Source of the DNA: a virus
Taxonomy: Duplodnaviria; Heunggongvirae; Uroviricota; Caudoviricetes
Strand: one strand, 5' to 3'
Length of the DNA stretch: 5,615 bases
Virus record (IMG/VR): IMGVR_UViG_2695420369_000012
Below are positions 1 through 5,615 of this stretch, one piece after another (the stretch's first letter is position 1; each line of letters starts with the position of its first letter). Under the pieces are notes generated by a model, which saw only the letters and a list, made by a program, of their open reading frames with translations, was not told the DNA's origin and did not search any database. The position numbers and the translations under genes were made by a program.

Positions 1-55
1 GTTTGATATTGAAGAAGCATGGGCTGAGCGGCAGTTAAAAAAGGTAACTAGGTAA
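1..55 (+). CDS. 3' end of an upstream gene (...FDIEEAWAERQLKKVTR*), probably the late antiterminator Q; partial, 5' end outside window
   Basis: Open frame 2..52 with TAA stop at 53-55, sitting immediately upstream of a lambda pR'-like promoter and tR' terminator. Position-based call; the 17 residues are too few to identify by sequence. Confidence 0.35.
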   Translation, partial: FDIEEAWAERQLKKVTR

Positions 56-60
56 CAAGG

Positions 61-88
61 TTGATTTTTCCGGAATCTGTGGTAAATT
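61..88 (+). promoter_or_regulatory. pR'-like late promoter (-35 TTGATT, 16-bp spacer, -10 TAAATT) with qut-like downstream sequence
   Basis: TTGATT at 61-66 and TAAATT at 83-88, followed by cgtcATAACGATGGG, which resembles the lambda pR'/qut region (TAAATTtgactcAACGATGGG, from memory). Confidence 0.4.
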
Positions 89-136
89 CGTCATAACGAT
101 GGGCGTTTTATGCCTGACGTTAGAAGAGTTTCTACA

Positions 137-159
137 ACCCGCCGCCGAGCGGGTTTTTT
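137..159 (+). terminator. tR'-like intrinsic terminator
   Basis: Stem ACCCGC / GCGGGT with loop CGCCGA, followed by a T6 run. The same stem-loop recurs at 3595-3618. Confidence 0.6.
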
Positions 160-279
160 ATGACTGAAATCGCGTCAGTACAGTAAACGCGCTGGTGGCG
201 GTGAATACCTGTCTTTCAGCTTGCTGGCTTTTTCGACAAGAGTTATTGGTGTGTCACGTTAACCGGAAAAGGAAAAGAC

Positions 280-477
280 ATGCTAAAACAGCAGGATATG
301 ACAGAAACCGCCAGAGTGGTGTTTAATGAATTAAGCGTTACCGAACCGGCGACAGTCGGGGAGATAGCGCAGAATACTTACCTTTCACGCGAACGCTGCC
401 AGTTAATACTGACCCAGCTGGTTATGGCGGGTCTGGCAGACTATCAGTTCGGTTGTTACAGACGCCTTCCGCAGTGA
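280..477 (+). CDS. small (65 aa) protein with HTH-like segment (ATVGEIAQNTYLSRERCQLIL); hypothetical DNA-binding protein
   Basis: ATG at 280 preceded by a good Shine-Dalgarno (AAAGGAAAAGAC-ATG). The ORF ends in the stem of an intrinsic terminator. It lies directly upstream of the methyltransferase. Confidence 0.55.
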   Translation: MLKQQDMTETARVVFNELSVTEPATVGEIAQNTYLSRERCQLILTQLVMAGLADYQFGCYRRLPQ

Positions 478-490
478 AGGCTTTTTTATT
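464..490 (+). terminator. intrinsic terminator overlapping the stop codon of the 65-aa ORF
   Basis: Stem GCCTTC / GAAGGC with loop CGCAGT, followed by TTTTTTATT. Confidence 0.55.
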
Positions 491-504
491 TGTGGTAAAT
501 GGGC

Positions 505-535
505 GGCTGGTGGGTGTTAGGGGCACCCACCAGCC
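505..535 (+). other. perfect 12-bp-stem hairpin (GGCTGGTGGGTG ttagggg CACCCACCAGCC) containing a Chi octamer GCTGGTGG in the 5' arm
   Basis: Exact inverted repeat read from the sequence; no U-tract follows, so it is not a typical terminator. It lies in the 5' leader of the methyltransferase gene. Confidence 0.5.
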
Positions 536-627
536 ATCTGCTCATGCGTTGGGTTCACAAGCAAACCTCAGGCCCACTGCTTTGCGCAAAAGCAGAATGA
601 GCCTATCAGAGACAGGCTTAATGATCC

Positions 628-1686
628 ATGCTTAATACTGTAAAAATATCCAGTTGTGAGTTAATCAACGCCGACTGCCTGGAATTTATCCGGTCGTTAC
701 CCGAAAATTCTGTTGACCTGATAGTCACGGACCCGCCGTACTTTAAAGTGAAGCCTGAGGGCTGGGATAACCAGTGGAAGGGCGACGATGATTACCTGAA
801 GTGGCTGGACCAGTGTCTGGCGCAGTTCTGGCGGGTGCTGAAACCTGCCGGAAGTCTTTACCTGTTCTGTGGTCATCGCCTGGCATCTGATATCGAAATC
901 ATGATGCGTGAACGCTTCAGTGTGCTGAACCATATTATCTGGGCGAAGCCGTCCGGACGCTGGAACGGATGCAACAAGGAAAGCCTGCGGGCGTATTTCC
1001 CCGCCACAGAGCGCATTCTGTTCGCGGAACATTATCAGGGGCCGTATCGTCCGAAAGATGCCGGGTATGCGGCGAAGGGCAGTGCACTGAAACAGCATGT
1101 GATGGCCCCGCTGATTTCTTACTTTCGTGATGCGCGAGCTGCCCTGGGGATAACGGCAAAACAGATTGCAGATGCCACAGGAAAGAAAAACATGGTGTCG
1201 CACTGGTTCAGTGCCGGTCAGTGGCAGTTGCCGAATGAAAGCGATTATCTGAAATTACAGGCGCTGTTTGCCCGGGTGGCAGAAGAGAAGCATCGGCGTG
1301 GTGAACTGGAAAAGCTCCACCACCAGCTGGTGGATACGTATACCTCACTGAACCGGCAGTATGCGGAGCTGCTGAGTGAATATAAACATCTGCGGCGGTA
1401 TTTTGGCGTGACGGTGCAGGTGCCGTATACCGATGTGTGGACGCATAAACCGGTGCAGTTCTATCCCGGGAAACATCCGTGCGAAAAACCGGCAGAAATG
1501 CTGCAGCAGATAATCAGCGCTAGCAGTCGTCCGGGTGACCTGATTGCAGATTTTTTCATGGGGTTGGGTTCGACAGTGAAAGCGGCACTGGCGCTCGGGC
1601 GTCGTGCAATTGGCGTTGAGCTGGAGACTGAACGTTTTGAGCAGACGGTTCGGGAAGTACAGGATTTAGTCAGCCAGAACGGATGA
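628..1686 (+). CDS. DNA methyltransferase, beta-class (motif IV DPPY near N-terminus, motif I FxGxG near C-terminus); most likely N6-adenine, N4-cytosine not excluded
   Basis: 352-aa ORF with DLIVTDPPYF at about residue 30 and HPCEKPAEMLQQIISASSRPGDLIADFFMGLGSTVKAALALGRRAIGVE at the C-terminus, the same order and layout as CcrM/YhdJ-type enzymes. A central insert of roughly 130 aa has an HTH-like stretch (ITAKQIADATGKK). Weak RBS. Confidence 0.9.
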   Translation: MLNTVKISSCELINADCLEFIRSLPENSVDLIVTDPPYFKVKPEGWDNQWKGDDDYLKWLDQCLAQFWRVLKPAGSLYLFCGHRLASDIEIMMRERFSVLNHIIWAKPSGRWNGCNKESLRAYFPATERILFAEHYQGPYRPKDAGYAAKGSALKQHVMAPLISYFRDARAALGITAKQIADATGKKNMVSHWFSAGQWQLPNESDYLKLQALFARVAEEKHRRGELEKLHHQLVDTYTSLNRQYAELLSEYKHLRRYFGVTVQVPYTDVWTHKPVQFYPGKHPCEKPAEMLQQIISASSRPGDLIADFFMGLGSTVKAALALGRRAIGVELETERFEQTVREVQDLVSQNG

Positions 1687-1726
1687 TATTGAAGAATTAA
1701 TTACGCGTCGTTATTATGCGGCTCCC

Positions 1727-1802
1727 GGCCCTTTAGCTCAGTGGTGAGAGCGAGCGACTCATAATCGCCAGGTCGCTGGTTCAAATCCAGCAAGGGCCAC
1801 CA
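1727..1802 (+). tRNA. ileZ: tRNA-Ile2 (anticodon CAU, lysidine type; ileX/ileZ-like). Could be scored as tRNA-Met by anticodon alone
   Basis: Hand-folded cloverleaf: acceptor GGCCCTT/AAGGGCC, D-arm GCTC..GAGC, anticodon loop CTCATAA, T-arm GCTGG-TTCAAAT-CCAGC, encoded CCA. Near-identical to E. coli ileX as I recall it. Confidence 0.85.
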
Positions 1803-1809
1803 TCACATA

Positions 1810-1886
1810 CCGCCATTAGCTCATCAGGAAAGAGCGCCAGCCTTCGAAGCTGGCTGCGCGGGGTTCAAGTCCCCGATGGCGGTCCA
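1810..1886 (+). tRNA. tRNA-Arg (anticodon UCG)
   Basis: Acceptor CCGCCAT/ATGGCGG, anticodon stem CCAGC/GCTGG with loop CTTCGAA, T-arm CGGGG-TTCAAGT-CCCCG, encoded CCA. Confidence 0.8.
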
Positions 1887-1899
1887 TTATCTGCATCAT

Positions 1900-1976
1900 G
1901 CGTTGTTAGCTCAGCCGGACAGAGCAATTGCCTTCTAAGCAATCGGTCACTGGTTCGAATCCAGTACAACGCGCCA
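1900..1976 (+). tRNA. tRNA-Arg (anticodon UCU)
   Basis: Acceptor GCGTTGT/ACAACGC, anticodon stem ATTGC/GCAAT with loop CTTCTAA, T-arm ACTGG-TTCGAAT-CCAGT, encoded CCA. Resembles argU-type tRNA. Confidence 0.85.
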
Positions 1977-1990
1977 CACTTATTTTCCCT

Positions 1991-2016
1991 GGCTCGCTTT
2001 TGCGGGCCTTTTTTTT
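1991..2016 (+). terminator. intrinsic terminator after the tRNA cluster
   Basis: Stem GGCTCGC / GCGGGCC (one G-U pair) with loop TTTT, followed by a T8 run. Confidence 0.6.
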
Positions 2017-2236
2017 AAATGTCTCACAATTCAGACGGTTGACAGTTGTCTGTTTTGCGGGGAGTTTGTTAAAAGAAACTGGCATGGTGAATCCCCCTGT
2101 GCGGAGGGGCAATCAGCGAGTAGGTATATGGGATAATCGCGGATTCAGGTGCTGGTACTGAATTCACCGGGAGGCACCCGGCATCATGCAATGGCACATA
2201 GCGCCACTCTCCAGCCCTCTCCGGAGGGGCTTTTCT
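2013..2236 (+). repeat. conserved ~225-bp structured element, copy A (candidate small RNA with its own terminator)
   Basis: Matches 4566-4790. The 3' ~170 nt are near-identical (1 substitution, 1 indel); the 5' ~50 nt carry about 6 substitutions. Contains TTGACA at 2039-2044, an extended -10-like TGtTAAAAG at 2068-2076, several internal hairpins, and a terminal GC hairpin + U-tract at 2213-2236. Confidence 0.7.
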
Positions 2237-2463
2237 GTGCCGGATACATCACAGTTTCTGGAACCTTAGGTACTACAGTATCAGTCAGGGTGCTATATTT
2301 TCAGATGTGATGAAAGCCTGTCAGCAGGCAGGGCGTATCGGAAATGACCCAGTAGAGAAAACGTTGACTCAGATACCGGTGCTGAGTTACCGGGAAACCG
2401 GCATCACATGACCGCTATCCTGAGGTGTACTGGCAATAGCGGACACTACCATTTGTTCTTTTT

Positions 2464-3282
2464 TTAAGCAGCCATCTGATGATATTTTTCCCTGAAGGCT
2501 GCCGGGGAGATATTCCCCAGACGAGAGTGACGACGCTGACGATTGTAGAAAATCTCAATGTATTCCCGTATTACTGAGATGGCTTCATCCCGGTTATTAA
2601 AACGATAGTGGCTCAGGCTCTCATTTTTCAGCGTTCCCCAGAAGCTTTCCATCGGAGCGTTGTCGTAACAGTTACCTTTACGCGACATTGATGTTTTCAG
2701 ACCAGACTGCTCCTGTATGACCCGGTAATCGTATGCGCAGTACTGTGAACCTCGATCAGAGTGGTGGATTAGCCCGGCAGGTGGGCGCTGGCTCCTGAGC
2801 GCCATAAACAGGGCTTTACCTGTCAGCTCTTTTGTCATGCGCTCTCCCATGGCGTAGCCGACAATTTCGCACGTATAAACATCTTTGATGCCAGCGAGGT
2901 ACAACCATCCCTCCTGTGTGGCAACATACGTCAGGTCCGCCACCCAGACCTGATTTGGTGCTGTAGGAGCGAACGTCTGGTTCAGCAGATTTGGCGCAAC
3001 TGGCAGATTGTGGTTCGAGTTCGTAGTCGCTCTGAACTTGCGTTTCTGCTTACAGCGTAGCCTTAGCTCCTTACGAAGACGTGCCAGTCGGTCACGACCA
3101 ACGATGATGCCATTCTCTGCCAGCTCCGTCTGGAGCCGCCGGGTTCCATATGTTTCGCGAGTGCGGATATGTGCCACCTTAATCTCCAGTTTTAGCCGCT
3201 CATCACTTTGTTTTCTGTCTGAGGGTTCATGCTGTACCCAGTTGTAATAACCGCTCCTGGATACACCAAATACCTGACACAT
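2464..3282 (-). CDS. IS3-family transposase OrfB (DDE integrase core)
   Basis: 272-aa ORF with hallmark IS3 OrfB segments: VWVADLTYV...GWLYLA, HSDRGSQY, SMSRKGNCYDNAPMESFWGTLK, YNRQRRHSRLGNISP. Confidence 0.9.
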   Translation of the reverse strand: MCQVFGVSRSGYYNWVQHEPSDRKQSDERLKLEIKVAHIRTRETYGTRRLQTELAENGIIVGRDRLARLRKELRLRCKQKRKFRATTNSNHNLPVAPNLLNQTFAPTAPNQVWVADLTYVATQEGWLYLAGIKDVYTCEIVGYAMGERMTKELTGKALFMALRSQRPPAGLIHHSDRGSQYCAYDYRVIQEQSGLKTSMSRKGNCYDNAPMESFWGTLKNESLSHYRFNNRDEAISVIREYIEIFYNRQRRHSRLGNISPAAFREKYHQMAA

Positions 3283-3317
3283 CGCTTCAATGGGAAATTG
3301 TTGTCGCCATTGTTCGA

Positions 3318-3589
3318 TTAACGCGTATTTTTCAGCGACTCCTGTGCAAAATACGCTGTTGCTTTTTTTAATATATCTCGCTCAAGGCGAGCTTCATTTA
3401 ACGCCTTACGCAGTTGCAGAATTTCAGATTCCAGTTCAGCCACCGTGCGGGAACCAGGAGTACCGAGCCCTTTTCTGGCGGCGGTAACCCATTGTCCTAA
3501 AGTGCCTTCAGGAAGAGATAATCGGGAAGCGCCTTCACTGATCGAAAGTTGATTTTCAATTTCTTTATTTCGGTTCCATACCCACGCGC
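3318..3589 (-). pseudogene. IS3-family OrfA, 5'-truncated (C-terminal ~90 codons remain)
   Basis: Minus-strand frame reads ...EIENQLSISEGASRLSLPEGTLGQWV...ELESEILQLRKALNEARLERDILKKATAYFAQESLKNTR*, with stop at 3318-3320. The N-terminal start is missing because the IS is cut at 3589. Confidence 0.7.
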
Positions 3590-3594
3590 CTACA

Positions 3595-3618
3595 ACCCGC
3601 CGCCGAGCGGGTTTTTTA
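3595..3618 (+). terminator. second copy of the tR'-like terminator, fused directly to the truncated IS end
   Basis: Same hairpin as 137-159 (ctacaACCCGCcgccgaGCGGGTttttttat), but with no pR' or Q upstream. Confidence 0.5.
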
Positions 3619-3656
3619 TTGCGGAATTAATTACGGACCGTTATTATTCTGCTCCC

Positions 3657-3732
3657 GGCCCTTTAGCTCAGTGGTGAGAGCGAGCGACTCATAATCGCCA
3701 GGTCGCTGGTTCAAATCCAGCAAGGGCCACCA
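3657..3732 (+). tRNA. ileZ: tRNA-Ile2 (CAU), second copy
   Basis: 76/76 identical to 1727-1802. Confidence 0.85.
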
Positions 3733-3739
3733 TCACAAA

Positions 3740-3819
3740 CCGCCATTAGCTTATCAGGAAGAGCAGACGACACGATAACAGGGTTGTTGGTGCGGGGGCG
3801 GGTCCCCGATGGCGGTCCA
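3740..3819 (+). pseudogene. degenerate tRNA-Arg-like gene: acceptor stem and D-arm kept, anticodon arm and T-loop replaced
   Basis: Same acceptor stem (CCGCCAT/ATGGCGG) and D-arm as the tRNA at 1810-1886, but the interior reads AGACGACACGATAACAGGGTTGTTGGTG and the T-loop is GCGGGT rather than TTCAAGT. I could not fold a canonical anticodon stem. Confidence 0.5.
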
Positions 3820-3832
3820 TTATCGGTATTCA

Positions 3833-3909
3833 GCGTTGTTAGCTCAGCCGGACAGAGCAATTGCCTTCTAAGCAATCGGTCACTGGTTCGAATCCAGTAC
3901 AGCGCGCCA
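3833..3909 (+). tRNA. tRNA-Arg (UCU), second copy
   Basis: Identical to 1900-1976 except one acceptor-stem position (A to G), which leaves a G-U pair. Confidence 0.85.
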
Positions 3910-4019
3910 TATTCATTCTTCCAGATTCCTTCCGGCAGAGCCTTATACTGAAATATACCTGGCTCAGGATATTGTTGAAAATATTTTATGTTTGTCAAAA
4001 ATAAAAGTTCTGTTAAGTA

Positions 4020-4373
4020 TTGATTGAGTGTTTGTTATACGGTCTAATGGTTTTTTCAGCATTAAATATTTATCATTCATATGGTGTGGGTAGAGTGAAT
4101 ATTGATGAGGCGTCGGGGTGTTTCATCCTTAGGCAGCGTATTGATATAGTCAATGCAGCACGAGCAAAGGCCTTCAGCCGTTTGACAGTTTTGTTCTGTA
4201 CTCCTGATCGTCTTTCGGGAAGAGACGTTATTATTCTGAATAGTGATGCTATACAGAGGGTTTGCGATGAGTTCATGGTTGCTAATTCAGAATTATTTGC
4301 TCTTGTTCAGGAGTACAACAGAATAGCCAGGACCTGTGGTATGGATGAACTTCGGATTACTCATCTGGGGTAG
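4020..4373 (+). CDS. hypothetical protein (up to 117 aa) in an AT-rich insert; start uncertain (TTG 4020, ATG 4047 or GTG 4095)
   Basis: Open frame in an AT-rich segment that is absent from the first module. No convincing Shine-Dalgarno at any candidate start. No recognisable motif. Confidence 0.4.
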   Translation: MIECLLYGLMVFSALNIYHSYGVGRVNIDEASGCFILRQRIDIVNAARAKAFSRLTVLFCTPDRLSGRDVIILNSDAIQRVCDEFMVANSELFALVQEYNRIARTCGMDELRITHLG

Positions 4374-4565
4374 ATACATATCTGGATTATCACCTGTTAC
4401 GGTAAAAAGTGATTGCTTACTGTTTTTGTGAATGGCATTGCAGCAGCCGGATAATGTCAGTGCTGGCTGACGGTGTGCTGGTGGCGGGTGTGGTGGTTGT
4501 TGCTTTCCCGTTGCTGAAAAAGAAAACGCCAGACTGTTAGCCGGGTATCAGTTAGCGGGAGAAAT

Positions 4566-4790
4566 TTTTAAATACTTCACAATTCAGGCGGTTGACTGTT
4601 GTCTGGTTTGCGGGGAGTTTGTTAAAAGAAACTGGCATGGTGAATCCCCCTGTGCGGAGGGGCAATCAGCGAGTAGGTATATGGGATAATCGCGGATTCA
4701 GGTGCTGGTACTGAATTCACCGGGAGGCACCCGGCACCATGCAATGGCACATAGCGCCACTCTCCAGCCCCTCTCCGGAGGGGCTGTTTA
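4566..4790 (+). repeat. conserved ~225-bp structured element, copy B
   Basis: Matches 2013-2236. Terminal hairpin CCCCTC tccg GAGGGG followed by ctgTTTaTaTT. Confidence 0.7.
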
Positions 4791-4820
4791 TATTGATTTT
4801 GTCAGATGTGAGTAAACTCC

Positions 4821-5156
4821 TTATGGACTTTGTTGTTTTAGTCCATAAGGACATATTTGCAGAGTGCAACGGTTATTAAAGCATTCATTCAATACGTTAT
4901 CTGTATTTGTAGGGCATTCCTGGCTATTTTTGATTGAATTCCAGAATGTTTTATTGAATGGTACTACGTTGTAAATGGTTACAGGTAGCACTTTGTTATT
5001 GAGCATGATGCCTGTGTGAGTCAGTGTAAATATACTTTCAGGAGGTAAGAAAGCATCCGATTGATACCAGATTATTAATTTTATTTTACTCCATATGACT
5101 GAAAAAGATATTCCGCATGATGGCTGGATAACTGTATCAATCACAATCCACTTCAT
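4821..5156 (-). CDS. iraM: IraM-like anti-adaptor protein (YcgW/ElbA family, RssB inhibitor that stabilises RpoS); 111 aa
   Basis: Strong Shine-Dalgarno (AAGGAAactaa-ATG). The N-terminus [19 protein letters not shown] and the C-terminal ICPYGLK with conserved cysteines (SQECP...C...C...ICPYG) match my recollection of E. coli K-12 IraM, at roughly 60% identity overall. AT-rich context. Confidence 0.65.
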
Positions 5157-5196
5157 TTAGTTTCCTTGTTTATGCCTTGCTGGTGATGTTCTGAAA

Positions 5197-5223
5197 AGTA
5201 TAAATGATATTTTTGAATGTAAA
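5197..5223 (-). promoter_or_regulatory. candidate sigma70 promoter for the IraM-like gene (-35 TTTACA, -10 TATACT, 15-bp spacer)
   Basis: Read on the minus strand: TTTACA is the reverse complement of 5218-5223 and TATACT of 5197-5202, about 40 nt upstream of the ATG. The spacer is short. Confidence 0.25.
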
Positions 5224-5416
5224 CCATAGAGCAGAATTATTTTTCTGATGTTGTTTATTGTTTATTTAAATGCAGGGTGGTTTATATCTCGTCTTGTAGT
5301 TTATCCATGCATATCTGCTTGATAATCAGGTTTTTATTTAAGGTATGGTTTTGTGTTTTTTCTGTATTACATGTCAGGTATTTTAAAGAATTATTTTTCA
5401 GATGGTGGAAAGAACC

Positions 5417-5543
5417 ATGGCATTTAAACACTATGATGTTGTCAGGGCGGCGCCGCCGTCAGATCTTGCGGAAAAGCTGACACATAAACTGAAAGAGGGC
5501 TGGCAGCCGTTTGGTAGTCCGGTGGCCATAACCCCTTATACCC
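5417..5543 (+). pseudogene. DUF1737-like small phage protein, 3'-truncated by IS insertion
   Basis: ATG at 5417 with RBS GGTGGAAAG. MAFKHYDVVRAAPPSDLAEKLTHKLKEGWQPFGSPVAI resembles the small proteins that precede holin genes in lambdoid phages. The frame runs into the IS end at 5544 and picks up IS-derived residues. Confidence 0.4.
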
Positions 5544-5615
5544 TGAGGTGTACTGGCAATAGCGGACACTACCATTTGTTCTTTTTTTAAGCAGCCATCT
5601 GATGATATTTTTCCC
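5544..5615 (-). mobile_element. second copy of the same IS3-family element; only its terminal 72 bp fall in the window
   Basis: 5544-5615 matches 2421-2492 (TGAGGTGTACTGGCAATAGCGGACACTACCATTTGTTC...). Confidence 0.75.

Follow-up and report, generated by a model that had tools for sequence, protein, structure and literature searches.

IraL was described in uropathogenic Escherichia coli CFT073 as a paralogue of IraM, with 58.9% amino acid identity, encoded on the "potB island" (Hryckowian et al., 2014, mBio; PMC4045071). The same paper counts RssC of Salmonella as the third member of an iraL-iraM-rssC family, with about 49% identity between rssC and iraL by ClustalW. Deletion of iraL lowers log-phase RpoS in CFT073 and Shigella sonnei, with the half-life of RpoS halved, and iraL under its native promoter raises RpoS in K-12 (PMC4045071). 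IraL co-purifies with RssB and, in two-hybrid assays, contacts only RssB's N-terminal domain, whereas IraM binds both RssB domains. The gene was reported to depend on sigma-70 and to be active in log phase without stress (PMC4045071); in later studies, iraL mRNA was more abundant at 37 °C than at 23 °C, and IraL levels were reported to be raised when CFT073 lacked Fur. IraM, which acts upon Mg2+ starvation, excludes RpoS by occupying the linker of RssB and the alpha4-beta5-alpha5 face of its receiver domain (2023 structure paper, PMC10844676). Here we analyze a 5,615-nucleotide (nt) stretch of DNA from a virus of the Caudoviricetes (IMG/VR record IMGVR_UViG_2695420369_000012; hereafter the window), which carries an iraL gene on its minus strand between an STnc100 small RNA gene and a truncated DUF1737 gene.

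The preliminary description of the window had reported an open reading frame (ORF) of 111 amino acids on the minus strand and had placed it in the IraM family as a prophage-borne anti-adaptor gene. The ORF is present as reported, with an ATG start, and the family was correctly identified, but the existing name, IraL, and the paper on its function were missed. This ORF is iraL, the prophage gene described in 2014, and is therefore already known and not new. The window protein is identical to CFT073 IraL (c1429, WP_000871291.1) at 110 of 111 residues, the sole difference being L74S. Their DNA differs at 2 of the 336 nt of coding sequence and at 4 of about 264 nt upstream. The published definition of iraL is at least 95% identity in the coding region and at least 96% in the promoter region (PMC4045071). 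The window gene falls within both limits and also agrees in context, occupying a potB-type lambdoid slot unlike that of K-12 iraM. With CFT073 iraL it further shares its place in the order Q, tRNAs, DUF3927, STnc100, iraL (antisense), DUF1737, holin, as well as the C-terminal QQSP tail, a hairpin over the stop codon, the -35 and -10 hexamers and the sequence at the mapped mRNA 5' end. The two differ in that CFT073 holds a complete lambdoid prophage at potB, while the window prophage is eroded by the insertion sequence (IS) IS600 and carries the L74S allele. Public sources assign this exact S74 protein to Shigella sonnei or Shigella and show it on at least 999 contigs, and it is encoded exactly by six of the six S. 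sonnei loci that we fetched, including that of strain 53G (HE616528.1). By BLAST, window positions 3590-5615 are 100% identical to one S. sonnei iraL locus.

We consider it very probable that iraL is a horizontally acquired iraM paralogue, which lambdoid prophages carry as independently transcribed cargo (a "moron") in their Q-to-lysis region, and that it protects RpoS via RssB. Gene identity, family, conservation of the promoter and of contact residues, cassette boundaries and context were established here; RssB binding, RpoS stabilization and the transcription start come from the literature. The blocking of RssB and stabilization of RpoS that the preliminary description foresaw are published for the 99%-identical CFT073 protein and agree with the S. 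sonnei iraL deletion, and the published iraL data likewise speak against an ORF that is neither transcribed nor translated. In a lysogen, a sigma-70 promoter belonging to iraL itself would drive its transcription, antisense to that of the phage late genes. IraL, with its IraM-like N-terminal beta-barrel, would bind the response-regulator-like adaptor RssB, and RssB so bound would stop delivering RpoS to ClpXP, leaving RpoS more stable even in unstressed exponential growth. The Shigella allele, lying in an IS600-eroded remnant, may behave as a domesticated host gene and not as part of a live phage.

Membership in the IraM family was evaluated with profiles, pairwise comparison and PDB sequences. 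The NCBIfam IraM model NF007393 scored 162 bits against a curated cut-off of 121, with residues 1-110 aligned to profile positions 1-113 of 114, and the protein is 61% identical to K-12 IraM (b1160) over 107 residues without a gap. Residues 1-78 also match chain A of PDB entry 8TWD, which is IraM 1-78 with RssB, at E = 6.3e-31 by sequence and at E = 1.6e-39 with a family profile. The similarity to IraM is thus significant and runs end to end, and the N-terminal part is predicted from the match to 8TWD to be a beta-barrel domain homologous to the crystallized IraM(1-78). In PHROGs, the window protein falls in phrog_4407, a group of unknown function.

Fifteen residues of IraM contact RssB, arranged in clusters I-III together with Pro66 (PMC10844676). 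Eleven of the 15 corresponding positions are identical in the window protein and the other four are conservatively replaced. Cluster I is fully retained (5/5), cluster II retains three of its five residues (T13S, L75I) and cluster III two of its four (H63N, I64V), and Pro66 is identical. The IraM-RssB structure likely gives the mechanism for IraL as well. The C-terminal region is also well conserved: residues C81, C92, C97 and C102 and the ICPYG motif are invariant in 14 family sequences, down to 53% identity, and the spacing CP-x9-C-x4-C-x4-CPYG is present at residues 81-105 of the window protein (window 4821-4916, minus strand). The use of this cysteine motif to define the family is our reading of the alignment and not a published criterion. 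The four invariant cysteines suggest a metal site or a structural knot; in the crystal work on IraM the C-terminal tail was removed as unstable, and neither the cysteines nor zinc is discussed (PMC10844676).

K-12 IraM (YcgW/ElbA) thus shares with the window protein the NF007393 model, most of the contact residues, the four C-terminal cysteines and ICPYG. Its gene, however, has unrelated DNA both upstream and downstream and adjoins the e14 element instead of lying in a Q-to-lysis region. It has its own canonical intrinsic terminator and lacks an STnc100 neighbor, the QQSP tail and the stop-codon hairpin. We therefore rejected strict orthology with K-12 iraM, given the unrelated flanks and the protein identity of 61%. 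The NCBI Prokaryotic Genome Annotation Pipeline (PGAP) labels the gene "anti-adapter protein IraM"; because locus and flanks are unlike those of K-12 iraM, this name is a family label and not a statement of orthology. RssC was not recovered by our protein search.

The structural likeness of IraM to PmrD raises the question of whether RssB is the main target of IraL. IraL could instead be a PmrD-like connector on another response regulator, or serve a phage function, with the effect on RpoS being secondary. The IraM fold is reported to resemble only PmrD, a connector that binds phospho-PmrA; the IraM N-domain superposes on PmrD (PDB 4HN7) at a root-mean-square deviation of about 1 Å, and both bind receiver domains (PMC10844676). 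The two-hybrid contact of IraL is confined to the RssB receiver domain, a fold common to all response regulators. Precomputed Pfam labels in the protein collection also list PF11183 (PmrD) for every member of the IraL family, at odds with our own hmmscan result (below), probably because of a difference between Pfam versions. PmrD nevertheless differs in its partner, which is PmrA and not RssB, and in lacking the cysteine-rich tail, and no sequence relation to it was detected by hmmscan or with the family profile. The 14-member profile searched against PDB sequences found only 8TWD and left PmrD undetected, so that the relationship to PmrD has the structure paper as its one source. Co-purification of IraL with RssB, the altered RpoS stability upon iraL deletion and the 11 identical contact positions all point to RssB, and we regard a different main target as extremely improbable.

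The promoter of the gene has experimental validation, through the mRNA start mapped in CFT073. The preliminary description had proposed that the ORF has a plausible promoter of its own, and its upper boundary, 5223, is the edge of the -35 hexamer. Both hexamers are present and are identical among the window, CFT073 and E. coli 042. The 5' end of CFT073 iraL mRNA was determined by rapid amplification of cDNA ends (5'-RACE) as ACATCACCAGCAAGGCATAAACAAGGAAACCA (PMC4045071). This sequence matches window positions 5189-5158 with one mismatch in 32, against a chance expectation of 0 matches. The start, mapped in CFT073, would by this match lie in the window at A5189, 7 nt past the -10 hexamer and just downstream of the promoter, giving a 33-nt leader. 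A generic promoter scan, which accepts only spacers of 16-18 nt, did not report this -35/-10 pair, whose spacer is 15 nt. The ribosome binding site had been called strong; the AAGGA element is there, but its quality is decent and not exceptional.

Control by PhoP, which had been suggested for the upstream promoter, belongs to iraM, whose induction by low Mg2+ is PhoP-dependent, and not to iraL with its reported sigma-70-driven activity in unstressed log phase. A search by eye for a PhoP box in the iraL promoter found a single GGTTTA half-site overlapping the -35 hexamer and no second half-site at 11-nt spacing. The phage record vB_EcoS-640R1 has TTTATA in place of the -35 TTTACA, and the iraL2 copy of strain JJ1886 has been described with a point mutation in its -35 element (PMC4045071). 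The 640R1 variant looks like this mutation and supports TTTACA as the intended -35. Two repeats lie nearby: a 21-nt direct repeat, 90% identical (5233-5253 and 5387-5407, plus strand), brackets the region from the iraL promoter to the DUF1737 start, and an imperfect 10-nt inverted repeat (5217-5226 and 5278-5287) overlaps the -35 hexamer. These could be recombination scars, operator-like sites or chance occurrences in AT-rich DNA.

Some observations weigh against iraL of the window being a working RssB antagonist. That the S74 allele would be expressed and active in the window's own setting is read entirely from its relatives, and the S. sonnei strain in the 2014 paper may carry either allele. 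L74S adjoins position 75, at which IraM contacts the C-terminal domain of RssB, and around the transcription start the window differs from CFT073 at position -1 and at one base of the 5' untranslated region (UTR). A terminator scan of the window reported no minus-strand terminator for iraL. Current Pfam-A, searched with hmmscan, returned no family for either the window protein or K-12 IraM even at E ≤ 10, so that placement in the family depends on the NCBIfam model, the pairwise alignment and the match to PDB.

The substitution next to the contact position and the two changed bases near the start are also what might be expected of a decaying, non-functional iraL in a dead prophage, silent or no longer able to bind RssB through IS600 erosion and L74S. 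The state of the surrounding prophage fits such decay, with IS600 cutting the DUF1737 gene and a truncated IS600 replacing the Q side. The gene itself does not: the ORF is intact, the -35, -10 and Shine-Dalgarno elements are unchanged and the IS elements lie outside the iraL cassette. The S74 allele has been kept unchanged over very many Shigella assemblies, which is unlike decay, and deletion of iraL lowered log-phase RpoS in S. sonnei (PMC4045071). We consider a decayed iraL very unlikely, and hold to a probably functional, horizontally acquired iraM paralogue.

The boundaries of the acquired DNA were delimited by comparison with an iraL-less prophage of S. sonnei 53G that carries a DNA methylase. 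Homology to this sibling stops at 4788, just past the terminator of STnc100. It begins again at 5416, where a single base separates it from the start codon of DUF1737. Because sibling homology breaks at these two points, iraL and its promoter constitute a discrete AT-rich cassette of 627 bp. In the sibling, the position of the cassette (7864-8089 of the 53G locus) holds another STnc100-like sequence, which has diverged to about 70% identity with the first copy. The GC fraction is 0.345 for the iraL ORF and 0.30-0.35 over 4801-5400, compared with 0.479 for the entire window, in line with the AT-rich setting noted in the preliminary description.

Intact prophages have the order Q, tRNAs, small ORFs, STnc100, iraL (antisense), DUF1737 (alone or with an esterase), holin, and iraL occupies this slot in the potB prophage of CFT073, in an E. 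coli 042 prophage and in the phage record 640R1. Together with the discrete cassette, this common slot bears out the proposal that a divergent copy travels as phage cargo, placed between tRNA module and DUF1737 gene. In the intact CFT073 and 042 prophages, iraL runs opposite to Q, holin and lysozyme. The claim that the gene is antisense to the late operon thus holds for the ancestral phage, but in the window that operon is a relic. Among the properties expected of a moron, the cassette shows insertion, its own promoter and a deviating GC fraction (0.32 versus 0.48), and it lacks its own intrinsic terminator; it has textbook moron anatomy save for that terminator. The bor gene of lambda is a comparable case, with its own promoter, prophage expression independent of late transcription, an orientation opposite to the late genes and an atypical composition. 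A bor gene is also annotated in phage 640R1. Bor is a surface protein, whereas IraL is a cytoplasmic regulator of host proteolysis whose gene is without a found terminator.

The 3' end of iraL carries the hairpin over the stop codon. The preliminary description had noticed this structure and its overlap with the stop, both of which are real, and had given its arms as an 11-bp repeat at 4819-4850; the arms are 12 bp long and extend one position further on each side. As RNA the hairpin folds with a free energy of -17.5 kcal/mol (z = -5.4), and none of 200 shuffled sequences folds as well. We considered and rejected two roles for it. It does not qualify as an intrinsic terminator, having no U-tract after the stem. 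Nor does it qualify as a selected RNA structure, since relatives at 88% and 75% protein identity have uncompensated changes in either arm and fold no better than shuffled sequences do (z = -0.27 and -1.33, respectively). The hairpin is probably neither a terminator nor functional. Its first arm encodes the invariant PYGL, whereas the QQSP tail specific to the clade, together with the stop codon, is encoded by the loop and second arm, which suggests an origin by an inverted duplication that lengthened the ORF by four codons.

Downstream of iraL and convergent with it lies a gene for the prophage small RNA (sRNA) STnc100. Its intrinsic terminator, with a stem at 4765-4786 followed by a T-run, was identified by the terminator scan and ends 25 nt from the iraL stop codon. 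This terminator hairpin, 25-55 nt past the iraL stop, is invariant in all five lineages compared. We rejected it as a bidirectional terminator serving iraL as well, as on the iraL strand GAGAGUGG follows the stem and not a run of U's. Read-through from iraL would run antisense to STnc100. The convergent arrangement of STnc100 and iraL is also found in CFT073 and in the Stx2c phage 1717, but not at K-12 iraM. A second STnc100 copy is present in the window at 2053-2242 (plus strand; Rfam RF02076), and the two copies score 132 and 124 bits. In a 2026 preprint devoted to prophage sRNAs, STnc100 serves as a marker of prophages and is related to PasD, but neither iraL nor iraM is mentioned. On the strand opposite STnc100, PGAP places a partial pseudogene of a "hypothetical protein" (window 4622-4750, minus strand). 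The same 42-amino-acid ORF lies opposite both STnc100 copies of the window, and its annotation over an RNA gene is probably spurious.

The iraL ORF with its promoter is widespread, being found at 90% or higher nucleotide identity in 1446 of the 5426 complete genomes of E. coli; a single genome has up to three copies. Four UK phage records carry iraL at 97% protein identity. By tblastn, 41 phage records, almost all of them Shiga toxin 2 (Stx2)-converting phages, additionally yielded another lineage, with 74% identity to IraL and 65% to IraM; the gene is unannotated in most of these phage records. The copy in phage 1717 (YP_002274253.1; 5001-5324 of its locus) lies antisense directly after stx2cB and is convergent with STnc100 (5335-5546). 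The genes of the Stx2 phages 1717 and 2851, and that of P0019, share with iraL of the window 74-75% protein identity and an antisense position before a DUF1737/esterase gene. The phage-1717 lineage differs in lacking the QQSP tail and the hairpin and in lying immediately downstream of stx2. The P0019 lineage, at 75% identity, adjoins a Shiga-toxin operon, and what its locus demonstrably has in common with STnc100 is the conserved terminator hairpin sequence only.

A literature search for IraM together with Stx2 found no functional study of the Stx-phage lineage. The authors of the 2014 survey reported Shiga toxin-producing E. coli (STEC) strains with high log-phase RpoS but without iraL, and inferred additional mechanisms (PMC4045071). 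The Stx-phage paralogues would have been missed by that survey because of its BLAST criterion of at least 95% and its allele-specific polymerase chain reaction. It is conceivable, though we hold it to be rather doubtful, that the iraL cassette is one allele of a wider, so far unrecognized phage module, in which an IraL-family gene lies antisense to the phage genes and convergent with STnc100 beside a DUF1737/esterase gene and has diverged lineages next to stx2. Such a module could be the "additional mechanism" in STEC, and in an intact prophage Q-dependent late transcription, antisense to the gene, could switch it off at induction. If so, antisense shut-off at induction would make RpoS stabilization specific to lysogeny.

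As a prophage-delivered protein of only 111 amino acids, IraL can rewire the host stress response by shielding RpoS from ClpXP in normal growth. The 2014 authors connect IraL with the way uropathogenic E. coli and Shigella adapt to their niches (PMC4045071). The function of iraL is published and the gene is labelled in routine annotation, and its rediscovery in the window adds nothing new in this respect. What our analysis adds is modest: a bounded cassette of 627 bp, the survival of the gene in an IS600-eroded Shigella remnant, a stop-codon hairpin that is probably non-functional, and sister lineages located by Shiga-toxin genes.

Table 1. Coordinates of iraL and neighboring features in the window.
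Feature	Position	Strand	Basis and remarks
iraL coding sequence	4821-5156	minus	ORF list; 111 amino acids, ATG start, TAA stop at 4823-4821, S74 allele
Shine-Dalgarno AAGGA	5163-5167	minus	6 nt 5' of ATG; read from sequence
5' UTR, 33 nt	5157-5189	minus	start at A5189 inferred from CFT073 5'-RACE
Sigma-70-type promoter	5197-5223	minus	-35 TTTACA 5223-5218, 15-nt spacer, -10 TATACT 5202-5197
Hairpin over stop codon	4818-4851	minus	12-bp perfect repeat 4818-4829 / 4840-4851, 10-nt loop; spans TAA 4823-4821
iraL cassette (moron)	4789-5415		627 bp; differs from iraL-less sibling prophage; 4790-5401 = 32% GC
STnc100 prophage sRNA gene	4606-4795	plus	Rfam RF02076, 132.4 bits versus gathering score 47; convergent with iraL
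DUF1737 gene, 5' part (MAFKHYD...)	5417-5543	plus	Pfam PF08410, 57 bits; PGAP start in E. coli 042; cut by IS600
Second IS600 copy, end	5544-5615	minus	99% direct repeat of 2416-2492; same orientation as first copy
IS600 copy 1, OrfA end truncated	2421-3559	minus	BLAST breakpoints; PGAP "IS3-like element IS600 family transposase"
Phage tRNA module	3657-3909	plus	CAT-anticodon tRNA 3657-3732; tRNA-Arg(TCT) 3833-3909; ARAGORN, Rfam, PGAP (042 homologue)
Small phage ORF between tRNAs and STnc100	4020-4373	plus	phrog_2873, PHROGs 3.8e-70
Small phage ORF DUF3927	4409-4540	plus	PGAP name in E. coli 042 and CFT073

The genes flanking iraL in the window are remnants (Table 1). The iraL segment is an island of about 2 kb between two IS600 copies, without Q upstream and without lysis genes downstream. 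The first IS600 copy stands in for the Q antiterminator gene upstream of iraL in S. sonnei reference genomes. On the other side, an IS600 end repeat starts near 5539-5544, and a full IS600 lies at this place in S. sonnei loci. The ORF of 62 amino acids listed at 5402-5590 (plus strand) is consequently a fusion, its first approximately 47 residues being DUF1737 and the rest coming from the inverted IS600 end; its candidate starts are 5402 and 5417. In intact phages, the DUF1737 domain either begins a NanS-p-type SASA esterase, about 617 amino acids long, as its N-terminus or is encoded by a stand-alone gene of 67 amino acids.

The window as a whole is a mosaic of two S. sonnei prophage-remnant loci, which lie about 0.7 Mb apart in reference genomes. 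Positions 1-3559 are 99.97% identical to another S. sonnei prophage locus, which carries a DNA methylase. At the joint of the two parts, IS600 is truncated at 3559 and followed by a 30-nt filler of unexplained origin (3560-3589), for which the only match was one of 44 nt, on chromosomes of S. flexneri and E. coli and in a different setting there. Either the source strain underwent a rearrangement mediated by IS elements or the mosaic arose as an artefact of assembly. CAT-anticodon tRNAs are found on the plus strand at both 1727-1802 and 3657-3732; ARAGORN calls them tRNA-Met and PGAP gives tRNA-Ile for the homologue. This tRNA is presumably of the ileZ type, which is read as Ile once modified with lysidine; Stx phages have such a tRNA in their tRNA modules.

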